Positions 12,699 through 62,687 of a DNA stretch of 64,000 nucleotides are shown piece after piece; positions within the stretch are counted from its first letter, which is position 1; each line of letters begins with the position of its first letter. The position numbers were made by a program, and so were the translations under genes. The stretch lies in assembly GCF_054482525.1 (NCBI RefSeq), contig NZ_CM137006.1. One strand, given 5' to 3'. Under the pieces are notes generated by a model that worked only from the letters and a program-made list of their open reading frames with translations, was not told where the DNA came from and did no database searches.

Positions 12699-13493
12699 AT
12701 GGATCTGTTGTACCGGGTAAAAACGCTTTGGGCCGCGCTGCGCGGTAATCATTACACCTGGCCTGCTATCGATATCTCTCTTCCCGGCAATCGCCATTTT
12801 CATCTGATTGGCAGTATTCATATGGGCAGCCACGATATGGCTCCCCTGCCCACCCGTTTGCTCAAAAAGCTCAAAAACGCCGATGCGCTGATCGTCGAGG
12901 CGGATGTTTCCACCAGCGATACGCCTTTTGCTAATTTGCCTGCCTGCGAGGCGCTGGAAGAGCGCATTAGCGAGGAGCAACTCCAAAACCTGCAGCACAT
13001 TAGCCAGGAGATGGGCATTTCTACCTCACTCTTTTCTACCCAACCGCTGTGGCAAATCGCGATGGTTCTTCAGGCGACGCAGGCACAAAAACTGGGGCTG
13101 CGGGCAGAATACGGTATCGATTACCAGCTATTGCAGGCGGCGAAGCAACAACATAAACCCGTGATTGAACTGGAAGGGGCAGAAAACCAGATTGCCATGT
13201 TGCTCCAGCTCCCTGACAACGGACTGGCGCTGCTGGACGATACGCTGACCCACTGGCACACCAATGCACGGTTGCTGCAACAAATGATGAGCTGGTGGCT
13301 GAATGCGCCGCCGCAAAATAATGAAATAACGCTGCCTAATACGTTCAGTCAATCGCTGTACGATGTGCTGATGCATCAGCGAAATCTCGCCTGGCGGGAC
13401 AAATTATGCGCCATGCCGCCGGGGCGCTATGTGGTCGCAGTCGGTGCACTACACCTGTATGGAGAAGGGAATTTGCCGCAGATGTTGCGCTAA
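12699..13493 (+). CDS. ybaP: TraB/GumN family protein YbaP
   Basis: 264-aa ORF MDLLYRVKTLWAALRGNHYTWPAIDISLPGNRHFHLIGSIHMG..., recognised as E. coli YbaP. Confidence 0.9.
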   Translation: MDLLYRVKTLWAALRGNHYTWPAIDISLPGNRHFHLIGSIHMGSHDMAPLPTRLLKKLKNADALIVEADVSTSDTPFANLPACEALEERISEEQLQNLQHISQEMGISTSLFSTQPLWQIAMVLQATQAQKLGLRAEYGIDYQLLQAAKQQHKPVIELEGAENQIAMLLQLPDNGLALLDDTLTHWHTNARLLQQMMSWWLNAPPQNNEITLPNTFSQSLYDVLMHQRNLAWRDKLCAMPPGRYVVAVGALHLYGEGNLPQMLR

Positions 13494-13575
13494 AAAAATG
13501 GCCAATATCGCTATTGGCCCGTCAAAGAGGAATTTCATTTTTTTATTATTATGCCGTCACTTTAAGCGACGGTGT
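13494..13575 (-). ncRNA. chiX: ChiX (MicM/SroB) small regulatory RNA
   Basis: Reverse complement reads ACACCGTCGCTTAAAGTGACGGCATAATAATAAAAAAATGAAATTCCTCTTTGACGGGCCAATAGCGATATTGGCCATTTTTTT, matching my recollection of ChiX, including the terminator hairpin GGCCAATAGCGATATTGGCC plus U-tract; located in the ybaP-ybaK spacer as in K-12. Confidence 0.85.
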
Positions 13576-19220: not shown

Positions 19221-19350
19221 CGTGGTTGCCGGATGTAAAATATGAAAAATATGTAGGCATGATAAGACGCGCCAGCGTCGCATCAGGCATCGAGAGCCAA
19301 ATGCCAGATGCGGCGTGAACGCCTTATCTGGCCTACGAACCGACGATAAC
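19221..19350. repeat. REP/BIME repetitive extragenic palindromes between convergent ybaL and gsk
   Basis: Tandem imperfect palindromes of the GCCGGATG...CATCAGGC / GCCAGATGCGGCGTGAACGCCTTATCTGGCCTAC type. Confidence 0.75.
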
Positions 19351-23649: not shown

Positions 23650-24358
23650 ATATCCTCCGGCATAGCCGGAGGTTTTTCAAATGCGCCTATAAGGCTCTCT
23701 TACCAGCCGCGCCCTAACAGGCGCACACGATCTGACATTTGCATCCAACTTCGTTACTTACGGCCCGTAAACGGGCTGCCCGGATAGGGAATCGATAACT
23801 GCTCTCCCATTTTATCCTCTTCAAGCTGGTGCTTTATGTAATCCTGTATCTTCGCCGTGTTCTTACCCACCGTATCGACGTAGTACCCTCTGCACCAGAA
23901 CTCCCTGTTCCTGTATTTGAATTTCAAATCACCAAACTGCTCGTAAAGCATCAGACTGCTTTTCCCTTTCAGATATCCCATAAAGCCGGATACGCTCATT
24001 TTGGGCGGGATCTCCACAAGCATATGGATATGATCTGCACAGCATTCAGCTTCCAGAATCCGTACACTTTTCCACTCACACAGCTTTCTCAAAATACTGC
24101 CTATTGCTCTACGCTTCTCTCTGTAGAACACCTGTCTTCGGTATTTTGGCGCAAAAACTATGTGATATTTACAGTTCCATCGGGTGTGCGCTAAGCTCTT
24201 TTCGTTCCCCATTGGGACCCCCTTTTGATTTCTTGTTTGACACTTGCAGTTGCCAGACCGCAAGGTGTTTTAACAAATCAAAAGGGGTTTTAATAACTGG
24301 CTTAAAGCTGAAAGCTTTCCGGAACCCCCAGCCTAGCTGGGGGTTTTCTGTGCACAAA
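23650..24358 (-). mobile_element. IS200-family insertion sequence (IS200/IS605 family), approximate boundaries
   Basis: Contains the Y1 (HUH) transposase gene; hairpin AACCCCCAGCCTAGCTGGGGGTT (24322-24344) upstream of tnpA resembles the IS200 left-end stem-loop; the htpG-adk spacer is ~890 bp here versus ~180 bp as I recall in K-12, i.e. ~710 bp extra. Ends are estimated to +/-40 bp. Confidence 0.75.
23754..24212 (-). CDS. tnpA: IS200 transposase TnpA (Y1 HUH transposase)
   Basis: 152-aa product from internal Met: MGNEKSLAHTRWNCKYHIVFAPKYRRQVFYREKRRAIGSILRKLCEWKSVRILEAECCADHIHMLVEIPPKMS..., near-identical to IS200 TnpA as I recall it. Confidence 0.9.
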   Translation of the reverse strand: MGNEKSLAHTRWNCKYHIVFAPKYRRQVFYREKRRAIGSILRKLCEWKSVRILEAECCADHIHMLVEIPPKMSVSGFMGYLKGKSSLMLYEQFGDLKFKYRNREFWCRGYYVDTVGKNTAKIQDYIKHQLEEDKMGEQLSIPYPGSPFTGRK

Positions 24359-24393: not shown

Positions 24394-26268
24394 TCAGGAA
24401 ACCAACAGCTGGTTCATACGGCGAATAAACAGGTTCGGATCTTCCAGCGTACCGCGCTCTGCCAGCAGCGCCTGATCCAGCAGCAGTTCTACCCACTCGC
24501 TGAACTTCGCTTCATCTTCAGTATCTGCCGCACGTTTCACCAGTACGTGATCCGGGTTCAGTTCGAAGATGTATTTCACTTCTGGCACTTTCTGGCCCGC
24601 CGCAGCGAACAGTTTCGCCATCTGAGTGCTCATTTCGTCCGCGTCGGTAGAAACAATCGCTGGCGTATCGGTCAGACGGTGAGTCAGACGGACATCTTTC
24701 ACGCGCTCGCCGAGCAGGGCTTTCACACGGTCGATGAACGGAGTCAGGGCTTTCTCCGCTTCTTTCGCGCTCTCATCAACTTCGTCAGCCAGTTTTTCCA
24801 GCGACTCGTCAACTTTAGACACAGACTGGAACGGTTTACCGTCGAACTCAGTCAGATAGTTCATCATCCACTCATCGATGCGGTCGGAAAGCAGCAGAAC
24901 TTCGATGCCTTTCTTACGCAGCAGTTCCAGGTGCGGGCTGCTCTTCGCTGCCGCATAGCTGTCTGCAGTGATGTAGTAGATTTTCTCCTGCCCTTCTTTC
25001 ATGCGGGAAACGTAGTCTTCCAGAGACACGGTCTGCGCAGAAGAATCGGTATGAGTAGACGCAAAACGCAGCAGTTTGGCGATCGCTTCCTGGTTAGCGA
25101 AATCTTCCGCCGGACCTTCTTTCAGTACCAGGCCAAACTGTTGCCAGAAGGTCTGGTATTTTTCCGCGTCGTCTTTCGCCAGTTTTTCCAGCATTTGCAG
25201 CACACGCTTGGTCAGCGCATTGCGCAGGTTACGCGTTACCGTGCTGTCCTGGAGGATTTCACGGGAAACGTTCAGCGGCAGATCGCTGGAGTCAATCAGA
25301 CCACGCACGAAGCGCAGATAGTTCGGCATGAACTGTTCTGCGTCGTCCATGATGAACACACGCTGGACGTACAGTTTCAGGCCATGTTTATGATCGCGGT
25401 TCCACATATCCCACGGAGCCTGGGACGGAATGTACAGCAGGCTGGTGTACTCCTGCTTACCTTCAACGCGGTTGTGGCTCCAGGTCAGCGGATCGTTAAA
25501 GTCGTGGGCGATGTGTTTGTAGAACTCTTTGTACTCTTCATCGGTGATTTCCGACTTGTTACGAGTCCATAGCGCCTGCGCTTTGTTGATTTTTTCCCAG
25601 GAGATAACGGTTTCGCCGTCTTTCTCTTCGCGTTTTTCGATCTCTACCGGCAGCGCGATATGGTCGGAGTATTTGCTGATGATGGAACGCACGCGCCAGT
25701 CATCGAGGAACTCGTCTTCGCCTTCACGCAGATGCAGGGTGATTTCAGTACCACGATCTTCTTTGGTGATGTCGGCAACGGTGTATTCACCTTCACCAGC
25801 CGATTCCCAGAAAACACCGTTTTCTGGTTTTTCGCCTGCCGCGCGAGTACGCACGGTCACTTTGTCGGCCACTATAAACGCAGAGTAGAAACCAACACCA
25901 AACTGACCGATCAGCTGGCTGTCTTTCGCCTGGTCAGAACCCAGGGATTCGAGGAATGATTTGGTGCCGGATTTAGCGATAGTCCCCAGATGGTCTATCA
26001 CTTCGTCGCGGGTCATCCCCACGCCGTTATCGGAGATGGTCAGCGTGCGCTTGTCTTTATCGAAAGAGACACGAACGCGCAGTTCGCCATCACCTTCGTA
26101 CAGATCCGGGTTAGAGAGCGCACGGAAACGCAGCTTGTCCGCCGCATCGGAGGCGTTAGAGATAAGCTCACGCAGGAAGATTTCTTTATTGGAATAGAGA
26201 GAATGGATCATCAGGTGCAGAAGCTGCTTCACTTCTGACTGAAAACCACGAGTTTCTTGTCCTTTCAT
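24394..26268 (-). CDS. htpG: Chaperone Hsp90
   Basis: 624-aa ORF with GHKL ATPase N-terminal domain, recognised as HtpG. Confidence 0.97.
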
Positions 26269-26319
26269 GTAGGTCTACCTCAATAATGCCATTTTAAGGT
26301 TAAAAACAGGATGAGGGAG

Positions 26320-26348
26320 AGATGGGGACAAGGGGGAATAATTTCAAG
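26320..26348 (-). promoter_or_regulatory. Sigma-32 heat-shock promoter of htpG
   Basis: Minus-strand reads CTTGAAA (-35) ... CCCCATCT (-10) with 14-bp spacer. Confidence 0.75.
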
Positions 26349-26377
26349 CGAGAGCAGGTGATCCTGCTCTCGTTTGC

Positions 26378-26982
26378 TTAAAAACGAATCTTATGACGCC
26401 CGGCAAGGGAGTGTGACAGCGTGGTGCCATCGACCATTTCCAGCTCGCCGCCAACCGGTACGCCATGAGCGATTCGGCTGGCTTCCACGTCATATTGCGC
26501 GCAAAGCTCGGCAATGTAGTTAGCGGTAGCTTCACCTTCAACCGTGGGGTTGGTGGCGAGGATCACTTCAGTGATTTTTTCCTCTGCCAGACGCTGTTCC
26601 AGACGATCAAGGCCGATATCATCCGGACCGATGCCGTCCAGCGGTGACAGGTGCCCCATCAACACAAAATAACGGCCTGAAAACTGCCCCGTCTGCTCAA
26701 TGGCGTAGATGTCCGCCGGACTCTCCACCACGCAGATTTGACCGTTTTCCTGACGACGCGGATTCGAACAGATGTTACAGACTTCCTGTTCGGTGAAGGT
26801 GCGGCAATCGGCGCAGTGGCCGATTTCCGACATCGCCCGGGTGAGCGCCTGCGCCAGACGCATCCCGCCGCTACGATCGCGCTGAAGCAGCGTGAACGCC
26901 ATACGCTGCGCCGACTTCGGGCCAACGCCCGGCAGGCAGCGCAGTGCTTCCATAAGCTGTGTTAACAGCGGGCTGGTTTGCA

Positions 26983-26983
<1 letters not shown>
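26378..26983 (-). CDS. recR: Recombination protein RecR
   Basis: 201-aa ORF with C4 zinc finger (CADCRTF...CNIC) and Toprim domain. Confidence 0.95.
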
Positions 26984-27327
<344 letters not shown>

Positions 27328-27364
27328 TCACGTTAAGGATGACGAACGTAAGCTGTGCTTACGA

Positions 27365-29296
27365 TCAAATGGGGCGGATACTTTCTTCATCCAGCTCCGC
27401 ATCGAAGAACCGACGCAGAGTCTGAATATTATTATCCGCAATAATGGACTCGCGCGCCTGCGCAAGTTTTTCTTCGTATATCGCCTGACGCCATTCCAGC
27501 GGCGTACGCACCGCGGGATTATCATCTTCAACGATAGTCAGTTCAACCGTTGAACCTTTTAACGTGCTCAACGCTTCAGCCAGTTTTTGCTGTGCGCCGC
27601 GGTTGTTCAAATGCCGCTGAGAGGAGCGCAAATGCAGACATACTGCGTTGTCGCTCTCCTCTTTCCAGGCATTTAAGGCCACCTGTTCGACCAGTTTTGG
27701 TAGCGAAAGTTGGCTCACCTGTGCCGCCCACGGGTCGCGCTCAATGGCTTCTGCCGCCAGCTTCGCCGCCAGTTCCGGCGTTTTTTCATGTTCCAGCGCT
27801 TTTTTTAGCGCCTTCGGCGTGGCGACCACTTCTTTTTGCTGCATCACTGGAGTGGTGGCCTTCCAGCGATACGCTTCTTTTTTGGCTGGCGCTTTTTCCA
27901 GCGCCGATGGCACCGGACGCGCCTGAACGCGATCGGTGACCGAAGCCAGTCTTTCCAGCGCAGCGTTATTCACCGGCCGCGCGCGGGTAGCGGCTGCCGG
28001 TTCACTCTTTTTTGCTTTGGTTGCTCCCTGCACGCGCTGCAACTGCTGGCGCGCCGCCAGCACCTGGCTGGTGGTTTCCGGGAGCGGTACAGTCGGTGCC
28101 TGCTGCGGCGCTGATTGCGGTTGCGGCGGCACCTGGGTTGGCGTCATTACTGCCGTTGGCGCGACGGGCGCAAAGGACTGGCGTGGCACTTCTGGCTCAG
28201 GCAGCGGCATACGCGGATGGAACGCCAGCGCGCGCAACAGCGTCATCTCAACGCCCATACGGCGGTCTGGCGCATACGGTAATTCTTTGCGACCAATCAA
28301 CAGCGTCTGATAGTAAAGCTGAATATCCGTCGGCGGTATGGTGCGCGCCAGTTCACGCATCCGCAGCTCGATGGCGGCCATATCGTTGCCAAGTGCAGCA
28401 GGCGAAAGTTGTACCATCGCAATACGATGCAACAGACCGAGCATTTCCACCAGCAACGCTTCCCACTCGATACCACGGGCAGCGGCTTCATTAATCAGCG
28501 CCATTACGCGCTCGCCGTTGGCCTCGACCATCGCTTCAACCAGCGACAGCGCCTGATCGTCGTCAAGCGTACCCAGCATCGCACTGACCGCCTGGGTTGA
28601 AACCTGGCCGTCACCGCTGGCAATCGCCTGGTCGGTCAGACTTAAGGCATCTCGCAGGCTGCCTTCAGCGGCGCGCGCCAGTAATTGCAACGCCCGCGGC
28701 TCGTGAGCGATATGTTCTTCGTTGAGGATGTGCTCAAGCTGATGGCGAATTTGCTCGACATCCAGCGCCTTGAGATGAAATTGCAAACAGCGTGACAAAA
28801 TCGTCACCGGCAATTTCTGTGGATCGGTCGTCGCCAGCAGAAACTTAACGTGCTCCGGCGGCTCTTCAAGGGTTTTTAACAGTGCGTTAAAGCTGTGGCG
28901 CGACAGCATATGCACTTCGTCGATCAGATAAACTTTGAAACGACCACGCGCCGGAGCGTACTGGACGTTATCCAGCAGGTCGCGAGTGTCTTCAACTTTA
29001 GTGCGCGAGGCGGCGTCGATTTCAATCAGATCGACAAAGCGCCCCTGCTCGATTTCACGACAGTTATCGCACACGCCGCACGGCGTCGCGGTAATGCCGG
29101 TTTCGCAGTTTAGTCCCTTCGCCAGCAGTCGGGCGATAGAGGTTTTTCCGACGCCACGGGTGCCGGAAAAAAGATAAGCATGATGAATACGCCCTAACGA
29201 CAAGCCGTTCGCCAGTGCGGTCAGCACATGTTCCTGGCCGACGACGTCAGCAAAGGTTTGTGGGCGCCATTTTCGGGCTAAGACCTGATAACTCAT
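27365..29296 (-). CDS. dnaX: DNA polymerase III subunits tau and gamma
   Basis: 643-aa ORF with AAA+ clamp-loader motifs (GTRGVGKTS). Confidence 0.97.
   Translation of the reverse strand: MSYQVLARKWRPQTFADVVGQEHVLTALANGLSLGRIHHAYLFSGTRGVGKTSIARLLAKGLNCETGITATPCGVCDNCREIEQGRFVDLIEIDAASRTKVEDTRDLLDNVQYAPARGRFKVYLIDEVHMLSRHSFNALLKTLEEPPEHVKFLLATTDPQKLPVTILSRCLQFHLKALDVEQIRHQLEHILNEEHIAHEPRALQLLARAAEGSLRDALSLTDQAIASGDGQVSTQAVSAMLGTLDDDQALSLVEAMVEANGERVMALINEAAARGIEWEALLVEMLGLLHRIAMVQLSPAALGNDMAAIELRMRELARTIPPTDIQLYYQTLLIGRKELPYAPDRRMGVEMTLLRALAFHPRMPLPEPEVPRQSFAPVAPTAVMTPTQVPPQPQSAPQQAPTVPLPETTSQVLAARQQLQRVQGATKAKKSEPAAATRARPVNNAALERLASVTDRVQARPVPSALEKAPAKKEAYRWKATTPVMQQKEVVATPKALKKALEHEKTPELAAKLAAEAIERDPWAAQVSQLSLPKLVEQVALNAWKEESDNAVCLHLRSSQRHLNNRGAQQKLAEALSTLKGSTVELTIVEDDNPAVRTPLEWRQAIYEEKLAQARESIIADNNIQTLRRFFDAELDEESIRPI
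27971..28013 (-). other. dnaX: dnaX programmed -1 frameshift signal (A AAA AAG heptamer plus downstream stem-loop) yielding gamma
   Basis: Minus strand reads GCA AAA AAG AGT GA with A-AAA-AAG at codons 429-430, then stem-loop CCGGCAGCCGCTACCCGCGCGCGGCCGG; -1 frame gives Lys-Lys-Glu-stop. Confidence 0.9.
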
Positions 29297-29424
29297 TGGC
29301 AGGCTCTGAAACGCTGGAAGGTGGATTCACGAAGGGGTAATGCTAACACAGCCCCGTCAGAACGGCGAGGCTGAATGCACATCTTGTGCTGTCCGTAGCG
29401 TGGGCAGCACAAGACTGGCGATGA

Positions 29425-29976
29425 TTAATGGCCCGGGAACGGAACAAGGCTGTAGCTGGTAATGCCCTGTTTTTCGAGACGCTGTTCGCCGCCGAGATCG
29501 AACAGGTTGATAATGAACGCAGCATCAGCCACTTCACCACCCAGACGACGGATCAGTTTAACGGTCGCTTCGATAGTACCGCCGGTTGCCAGCAGATCGT
29601 CCACCACCAGAACTTTGTCGCCCGGTTTGATGGCATCAACGTGGATTTCCAGCTGATCGGTGCCGTATTCCAGGTCGTAAGTTTCACTGATGGTTTCACG
29701 CGGCAGTTTGCCCGGTTTACGGACCGGCACAAAGCCAACGCCCAGACCCAGAGCTACCGGAGCGCCAAACAAGAAGCCACGCGCTTCGGTGCCGACAACT
29801 TTGGTAATGCCCGCATTTTTGTAACGCTCAACCAGCAAGTCGATGCTGAGAGCGTAAGCTTTCGGGTCTTCCAGTAAGCTGGTGACATCACGGAAAAGAA
29901 TGCCGGGTTTTGGGTAGTCCTGAATGCTTTTGATGCTATTTTTGAGATACTCAAGCTGCTGTGCAGTCGCGGTCAT
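29425..29976 (-). CDS. apt: Adenine phosphoribosyltransferase
   Basis: 183-aa product from [30 protein letters not shown]...; the ORF-track entry extends 18 codons upstream. Confidence 0.95.
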
Positions 29977-30128
29977 AAGTGTATGCCTGCTTGTTACGGT
30001 GGTACTCACGGCGCGTTTTAAACGTATCAAAAGTAACAGTTGTTTAACCTTTGACCGCCTGCGCCTGTGCTCGAAAACGCCAGAATGTACTGGCTGTACG
30101 CAATAATTGCAACTGCGATTGTTGTGCT

Positions 30129-30506
30129 TCAGTGCTTTTCTTGCTTTTCATCAATCACCGGAATTCGCCACATATAAAAAAGCAAACAGGCGAGAATAAC
30201 CAGCAACATAATGCGTACCCATGGCATCTGGACGAACCACAGAGAAATTGCAAACGTGAGCAAAATAAGCAAAATCGCCCGTGGTTTGACGCCGCGCGGC
30301 ATCGCATGATGTTTCTGCCAGAAACGTAGATAGCTGCCAAACCATGAGCGGTACAGCAACCAGGCGTGAAAGCGCGGGGAAGAACGGGCAAAGCACCAGG
30401 CCGCCAGCAGGATAAACGGCGTCGTCGGTAATACCGGTAATACCACGCCCAGCGTACCCAGCACTACCGCCAGCCAGCCAATGATGATTAAAATGATTCG
30501 TTGCAT
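30129..30506 (-). CDS. ybaN: Inner membrane protein YbaN (DUF454)
   Basis: 125-aa hydrophobic ORF, conserved position between apt and priC. Confidence 0.88.
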
Positions 30507-44826: not shown

Positions 44827-44940
44827 GGGTGGGGGCCCTGCCAGCTACATCCCGGCACACGCGTCATCTGCCTTGGCTGCTTCCTTCCGGACCTGACCTG
44901 GTAAACAGAGTAGCGTTGCGGGAGAACCAACAGAGCCCCC
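44827..44940 (-). ncRNA. ffs: 4.5S RNA (signal recognition particle RNA)
   Basis: Minus strand reads GGGGGCTCTGTTGGTTCTCCCGCAACGCTACTCTGTTTACCAGGTCAGGTCCGGAAGGAAGCAGCCAAGGCAGATGACGCGTGTGCCGGGATGTAGCTGGCAGGGCCCCCACC, the E. coli 4.5S RNA; overlapping track ORFs are spurious. Confidence 0.95.
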
Positions 44941-62500: not shown

Positions 62501-62583
62501 AGAGCTCTCTCTTAGTTTAATTTCCGCCAGGTAATCAGATGACACGACTGTGCTTCACGCCATCTATTAACATGTACGTCAGT

Positions 62584-62610
62584 ATATGGGGATGTTTCCC
62601 CCACATTCAA
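62584..62610 (-). promoter_or_regulatory. Sigma-32 heat-shock promoter of lon
   Basis: Minus strand reads TTGAATG (-35) ... CCCCATAT (-10). Confidence 0.7.
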
Positions 62611-62687
62611 CGCCGAGAATAGAGGAAAAATTAAAGGGGAGATAAAATCCCCCCTTTTTGGTTAACTAATTGTATGGGAATGGTTAA

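Follow-up and report, generated by a model that had tools for sequence, protein, structure and literature searches.

A K-12-identical DnaX frameshifting element in an Escherichia coli genome

Few bacterial recoding signals have been studied as thoroughly as the frameshift signal of dnaX, and gamma, the shorter of the two products of this gene, is an experimentally established subunit of the DNA polymerase III clamp loader. In dnaX, 50% of ribosomes move into the −1 frame and end translation one codon further on (PMC5009743). In E. coli the heptamer A_AAA_AAG is exceptionally prone to shifting, because the single tRNA-Lys of the species forms a stronger pairing with AAA than it does with AAG (PMC5009743). 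Frameshifting is stimulated both by an upstream Shine–Dalgarno (SD) interaction and by a stem-loop that has 11 bp in the wild type (PMC5009743), and the upstream stimulator has been assigned to the SD-like motif AGGGAG (PMC5009743, PMC7282821). Efficiencies of 50–80% have been reported, along with the hairpin inhibiting both the binding of tRNA in the A site and translocation, and the wild-type dnaX linker has been described as AGUGA (PMC7282821).

Related systems reach a similar outcome by other means or use the same heptamer to another end. In both Thermus thermophilus and Caulobacter crescentus, the same gene yields a shorter gamma that lacks the C-terminal domains of tau (PMC5009743); the first of these takes the route of transcriptional slippage and the second that of tau proteolysis, whereas the dnaX described here is, in our reading, of the translational type known from E. 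coli. The frameshift sites of IS911 and the IS3 family have the same A_AAA_AAG, often with an SD upstream of it and a structure downstream (PMC4066793, PMC5009743). In these insertion sequences, however, the shift fuses two open reading frames into a longer transposase, whereas in dnaX termination follows at once and the product is shorter.

Here we describe the dnaX gene of a 64-kb stretch of E. coli DNA (the window, meaning the whole stretch that was analysed). We consider it very probable, at about 0.97, that the feature within this gene is the canonical programmed −1 ribosomal frameshift cassette of E. coli dnaX. The likeness to the K-12 element extends to its length (65 nt), the codons at which the shift is placed (429–430) and the lengths of both products (gamma, 431 amino acids; tau, 643 amino acids).

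The gene, the cassette and the predicted products

The neighbours of the gene are apt on its upstream side and ybaB, recR and htpG on its downstream side (open reading frame list, 25500..30500). Its protein scores 982.5 bits against the NCBIfam equivalog model NF005942, 'DNA polymerase III subunit gamma/tau' (cut-off, 613), and 445 against TIGR02397 (cut-off, 250). The Pfam domains of tau follow in the order PF13177, PF22608, PF12169, PF12168 and PF12170, which corresponds to domains I–III and then IV and V: DNA_pol3_delta2 (residues 20–178), the lid (182–230), gamma3 (232–358), tau_4 (417–498) and tau_5 (500–640). The equivalog score above the cut-off and the presence of domains I–III, IV and V place the protein in the DNA polymerase III subunit gamma/tau family.

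The region around the shift site reads, on the minus strand, GUG CAG GGA GCA ACC AAA GCA AAA AAG AGU GAA CCG GCA GCC GCU ACC CGC GCG CGG CCG GUG AAU, and the features within it are listed in Table 1. The heptamer stands in the X_XXY_YYZ register (gene position 1284, frame offset 2), with AAA and AAG as codons 429 and 430. A spacer of 10 nt (28023..28014) separates it from AGGGAG on its 5′ side, and a hairpin begins 5 nt 3′ of it. This hairpin (ACCGGC-A-GCCGC-UACCC-GCG-C-GC-G-GCCGGU) is built from a 6-bp lower stem, ACCGGC/GCCGGU, an A.G apposition and a 5-bp upper stem that contains one bulged C and carries the loop UACCC; its folding energy is −16.3 to −18.7 kcal/mol (−16.3 kcal/mol for 28 nt). 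The covariance model of the DnaX frameshifting element, RF00382, matches with a score of 96.8 bits (E = 1.9 × 10−21; gathering score, 35), and a scan of the whole 64-kb window at the gathering score returned this as the sole DnaX match. The score, the register of the heptamer, the SD-like motif at 10 nt, the stem-loop and the −1 frame stop after Lys-Lys-Glu all agree with the RF00382 element.

Table 1. Coordinates of dnaX, its predicted products and the parts of the frameshift cassette (positions in the window).
Feature	Position	Strand	Basis or remarks
dnaX zero-frame open reading frame, tau (643 amino acids)	27365..29296, stop codon included	minus	open reading frame list
gamma coding region (431 amino acids)	28002..29296	minus	codons 1–430 in frame 0 (29296..28007), then −1 slip
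slippery heptamer A_AAA_AAG	28007..28013	minus	begins with the third base of codon 428 and continues through codons 429–430; Rfam positions 20–26
internal Shine–Dalgarno-like AGGGAG, 5′ stimulator	28024..28029	minus	sequence reading; Rfam positions 4–9
purine-rich linker AGUGA (5 nt)	28002..28006	minus	joins heptamer to hairpin; holds the −1 frame UGA (28004..28002)
3′ stimulatory hairpin (11 bp)	27972..28001	minus	minimum free energy fold and Rfam consensus structure
Rfam RF00382 match, DnaX frameshifting element	27968..28032	minus	model positions 1–65 of 65
second in-register heptamer, CU[A_AAA_AAA]	27806..27800	minus	overlaps an AAAAAAG copy at 27805..27799

The initial annotation had placed A AAA AAG at codons 429–430 and a GC-rich stem-loop downstream of it, and both are borne out, the first by the computed register and the second by the fold and the Rfam match. 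The interval that it gave, 27971–28013, almost exactly covers the stretch from the heptamer through the 5-nt linker to the end of the hairpin; it excludes AGGGAG, the third part of the cassette, which went unmentioned, as did the location on the minus strand. Its length for tau, 643 amino acids, is that of the open reading frame list, and gamma, put at about 431 amino acids, comes to exactly this number by translation of the −1 frame.

After a −1 slip, G28007 would be read a second time, as part of GAG (Glu), and the next codon would be the UGA of the linker; translation of the −1 frame from the first A of the heptamer gives K-K-E-stop. The computed gamma has 430 zero-frame residues plus this Glu and ends in ...ATKAKKE, and its extent of 1,295 nt equals that of the joined gamma coding sequence of K-12 (YP_009518751.1). 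Domain III is complete at residue 358, before the shift site, and most of domains IV and V lies beyond that site, so gamma is predicted to be without the tau-specific domains. Termination after residue 431 would leave a clamp-loader subunit that has neither domain IV, which binds DnaB, nor domain V, which binds the polymerase alpha subunit.

Experiments published for K-12, whose sequence is identical, lead us to infer that frameshifting takes place in this strain with an efficiency of about 50–80%, and the mechanistic details that follow derive from the same experiments. A ribosome at A_AAA_AAG would have tRNA-Lys on AAA in the P site and on AAG in the A site. The internal AGGGAG, 10 nt upstream, would pair with the anti-SD sequence of 16S rRNA, and the 11-bp hairpin, 5 nt downstream, would stand at the mRNA entry channel, where it would hinder translocation and the binding of tRNA in the A site. 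About half of the ribosomes would slip back by one base to AAA_AAA, because AAA is a better pairing partner than AAG for the sole tRNA-Lys of E. coli (anticodon mnm5s2UUU). The slipped ribosomes would read GAG and stop at UGA, giving a gamma of domains I–III with a short tail, and those that remain in frame would produce the full-length tau, with domain IV for the binding of DnaB and domain V for that of polymerase alpha in addition. No tRNA genes were found when the 64-kb window was scanned for them, and the decoding of both AAA and AAG by a single tRNA-Lys with a UUU anticodon is expected from the identity of the organism as E. coli and from published work (PMC5009743).

Conservation in E. 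coli and other Enterobacterales

The 65 nt of the cassette are those of K-12 MG1655 without a single difference. The statement that the region is fully conserved, which had been offered together with a comparison to K-12 as its check, holds in this sense: neither the heptamer nor the stem-loop carries a mutation relative to MG1655. In that genome, dnaX lies at 492092..494023 and is accompanied by a separate, joined coding sequence for gamma. The two alleles are 98.65% identical over the gene, and the 26 nucleotide differences (25 synonymous substitutions and M578T) lie solely outside the cassette. The substitutions closest to it fall at positions 1128 and 1440 of the gene, with none in 1129–1439; as a sign of synonymous constraint, this substitution-free block of 311 nt is too weak (simulated P of approximately 0.05 for a block that contains the cassette and 0.26 for any block).

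Other E. coli genomes give the same picture. The present dnaX is 100% identical to that of strain PCN033 and of three other strains, and RefSeq annotates a 'DnaX frameshifting element' of 65 nt in PCN033, at the position that corresponds to the Rfam match; it lists this feature under the match in other top hits as well. The gene was found in 5,424 of 5,426 complete E. coli genomes, and the cassette is free of internal mismatches in at least 5,372 of the 5,426. Over its whole length, dnaX is only 95–99% identical to the present allele in 5,348 complete genomes.

For a wider view, we scanned the GTDB collection, with one genome per species, using a pattern that comprised the upstream half of the cassette (AGGGAG-N10-AAAAAAGAGTGA) and left the hairpin unconstrained. 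Among the matches listed, which number at least 120, at least 75 loci are of the enterobacterial form and reach far enough downstream to be analysed. With the window added, they yielded 63 distinct sequences, each of which was folded individually, and 39 are in the alignment. We acknowledge that the presence of AGGGAG throughout this Enterobacterales alignment was demanded by the search pattern and is no independent evidence. The hairpin forms at the same offset after the linker in 62 of the 63 distinct sequences. All hairpin-forming sequences among the matches listed share a CCGGC/GCCGG lower stem with a purine–purine apposition above it, and the upper stem, the loop and the encoded amino acids vary by genus.

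The cassettes of Citrobacter, Enterobacter, Kosakonia, Pantoea, Erwinia, Mixta, Serratia and Buttiauxella resemble the present one in the hairpin offset and the lower stem, in addition to the order of SD-like motif, 10-nt spacer, heptamer and AGUGA that the pattern required. They differ from it above the lower stem, where Enterobacter has GCGC-CAGGAAGA-GCGC and some Pantoea have GCGCG-UUC-CGCGC, and in the closing pair, which is G-C rather than A-U in Erwiniaceae and Buttiauxella.

Eight base pairs are common to all types of hairpin, and in the alignment of 39 of the sequences listed, 99% of their cells are paired in register, compared with 20–57% when the 3′ partners of the same eight pairs are slid by 1–3 columns. 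Two of the pairs carry compensatory changes. Of these 39 sequences, 24 have A-U as the closing pair and 14 have G-C, and in one Mixta sequence a G-C pair has become A-U through changes on both sides. Covariation of this kind agrees with the Rfam structure. It is modest, in that five of the eight common pairs are invariant and the compensatory changes probably come from few evolutionary events.

The 18-base pattern also had matches in Collinsella (at least about 40 among those listed), which we examined as a distant dnaX-like cassette and rejected. A sigma-70-like gene carries these matches at its 5′ end, and AAGGGAG there is most likely the initiation SD for a GUG located 5 nt downstream. The independent match families from outside the enterobacteria number about eight among those listed, compared with about nine chance matches expected for 18 bases in 2 × 298 Gb, and the Collinsella matches are best explained as coincidence.

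Other routes to a shorter DnaX and a second heptamer

A shorter DnaX could also arise at the level of transcription, if RNA polymerase slipped on the A-run and those mRNAs that had thereby acquired or lost a base were translated to a nearby out-of-frame stop. T. thermophilus dnaX provides the precedent, and a homopolymeric A-run is present at the site in this gene too. However, the run consists of six A followed by G, whereas efficient bacterial slippage has been described on nine A or T (PMC5009743), and the homopolymer of about nine A that marks a Thermus-type recoding site is absent here. The SD-like motif 10 nt from the heptamer and the hairpin 5 nt from it are conserved and have no role in transcriptional slippage, and work on the identical K-12 sequence attributes the event to the ribosome (PMC5009743, PMC7282821). 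An A-run of 6 nt rather than 9, in combination with stimulators that act on the ribosome, points to the translational mechanism of the E. coli type for the present dnaX, and we regard slippage of the polymerase as highly improbable.

Proteolysis of full-length tau, to which the heptamer and the hairpin would be incidental, is the source of gamma in C. crescentus (PMC5009743). For the gene considered here we rate it just as improbable. It leaves unexplained why a −1 frame stop follows immediately 3′ of the heptamer, and three stimulatory elements at their exact spacing and the match to the Rfam model speak against it, as do the joining of the K-12 gamma coding sequence at the same site and the frameshifting of 50–80% observed in experiments with the identical sequence (PMC5009743, PMC7282821).

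The heptamer and the hairpin, taken singly, are weak evidence for a recoding signal. Bare AAAAAAG occurs in 22 copies in the window, compared with 13.1 expected, and a comparison of the hairpin with dinucleotide shuffles of the same GC-rich sequence shows no significant gain in stability (z = −1.63 with 28 nt folded; z = −1.16 with 71 nt folded). As these z-scores are not significant, our case for the hairpin draws on homology and on the pairing across genera, and thermodynamics was not used. Combined, the signals are highly specific by virtue of the RF00382 match. A chance pairing of heptamer and hairpin in a GC-rich linker-coding region, without any recoding function, which the commonness of the heptamer and the unexceptional fold might suggest, is the least probable alternative and is effectively refuted by the covariance-model E value, the maintenance of the cassette in E. 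coli genomes and a hairpin that keeps its offset across genera despite sequence turnover.

Two further candidates in the gene were set aside. The AAAAAAG at 27883..27877 stands in the register GCC_AAA_AAA_G, which is no tandem-slip heptamer, and an Rfam match to STnc460 in the 3′ end of dnaX is below threshold (26 bits; gathering score, 70) and was taken as chance.

The present allele has a second in-register heptamer (Table 1), created by a synonymous change of Leu497 from CTG to CTA relative to K-12. An identical 89-mer around it occurs in at least 325 of the 5,424 complete E. coli genomes. A −1 shift at this heptamer would give a product of 503 amino acids (...LKK+SAGT), cut at the boundary between domains IV and V. 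A_AAA_AAA is listed as one of the motifs whose frameshifting exceeds 0.10% when stimulators are absent, and E. coli genes contain AAAAAAA less often than expected (PMC4066793). Around this second heptamer there is no SD-like motif at 10 nt and no hairpin at 5–8 nt, and folding of the local sequence gives z = −0.30; with no stimulators evident around it, we rejected it as a programmed site and regard it as incidental. That it gives rise to a third DnaX product of 503 amino acids at a low level, either by a ribosomal −1 shift or by transcriptional slippage on the run of seven A, seems to us a long shot. Such a product, if real, would keep the DnaB-binding domain IV and be without the alpha-binding domain V.

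Meaning for annotation and for the family

The cassette is already known and identical to the reference, and it brings no new biology. Across genera, the comparison illustrates once more a known point, namely that the position of the hairpin and its lower stem are kept and its upper part turns over. The value of the finding is annotational. Plain calling of open reading frames gives tau alone and misses gamma, as the initial annotation had remarked and as the open reading frame list, with its 643-residue frame only, bears out. A complete annotation of dnaX therefore needs a joined coding sequence for gamma and a frameshift element; to be added for this genome are the gamma coding sequence (29296..28007 joined to 28007..28002, minus strand), the frameshift element and the SD-like element.

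Genomic setting and dnaX conservation

Besides the DnaX element, five structured RNAs scored above the Rfam gathering score in the window (see table), and all of them fit the part of the E. coli chromosome that surrounds htpG-dnaX. Across both strands of the whole window, AAAAAAG occurs 22 times compared with 13.1 ± 3.6 copies expected from dinucleotide shuffles, a mild excess (22 was reached in only 2 of 100 shuffles). Among 5,426 complete E. coli genomes, 2 had no dnaX match, and 2 of the 5,424 matches fell on plasmid-labelled records; both kinds of case probably reflect replicon labelling or assembly issues.

Features in the window and at loci from the one-genome-per-species GTDB scan (L-handles).
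Feature	Sequence	Coordinates	Strand	Remarks
sroB	window	13492..13575	-	Rfam, 82 bits
naRNA4	window	19256..19333	-	Rfam, 74 bits
STnc490	window	24222..24345	-	Rfam, 146 bits
M578T (ATG>ACG)	window	27563..27565	-	dnaX codon 578, alpha-binding domain V
Slippery heptamer CU[A_AAA_AAA] (7-A run)	window	27800..27806	-	dnaX codons 497-499, in register
Third AAAAAAG inside dnaX	window	27877..27883	-	codons 472-473
small SRP RNA	window	44836..44932	-	Rfam, 68 bits
sraA	window	62572..62667	+	Rfam, 107 bits
Candidatus Pantoea persica cassette	L054	3006..3033	-	SD-like element, heptamer and -1 UGA retained
Citrobacter-like dnaX cassette	L067	3024..3051		record titled Chryseobacterium sp. 18061
Collinsella pattern match	L036	9769..9796	-	5' end of 453-aa sigma-70-like ORF

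Cassette-like matches in other genomes

The search pattern comprised 18 specified bases (AGGGAG-N10-AAAAAAGAGUGA), and among the matches listed the number of independent non-enterobacterial families carrying it is in line with chance. About 40 Collinsella loci besides L036 have the pattern among these matches (L004, L005 and L014, for example). In Collinsella a primase-like ORF precedes the sigma-70-like ORF. The heptamer has the register CC[A_AAA_AAG], a UGA stands in the -1 frame, and AAGGGAG is probably the initiation SD of a GUG located 5 nt downstream. The Chryseobacterium record is likely to be contaminated or mislabelled, because the study that produced it also yielded a 'Citrobacter sp. 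18056' assembly. In Candidatus Pantoea persica the canonical hairpin is absent or rearranged (GCCGGCAGCGUCGGCUAAC...), the sole non-standard fold in 63 distinct enterobacterial sequences among the matches listed.

A second in-register heptamer in dnaX

Compared with E. coli K-12 MG1655, tau differs by a single amino acid, M578T, and the remaining 25 differences are synonymous. One synonymous change, Leu497 CTG>CTA, creates a second slippery heptamer in register within dnaX. The 89-mer surrounding it has an identical copy in 325 of the 5,424 complete genomes with a dnaX match. Neither an SD-like element nor a hairpin is evident near this site as a stimulator. The third AAAAAAG was rejected as a tandem-slip heptamer, given that its register is GCC_AAA_AAA_G and not X_XXY_YYZ. 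A -1 shift at A_AAA_AAA would yield a DnaX product of 503 aa that ends in ...LKKSAGT, and the protein would be cut at the boundary between domains IV and V.
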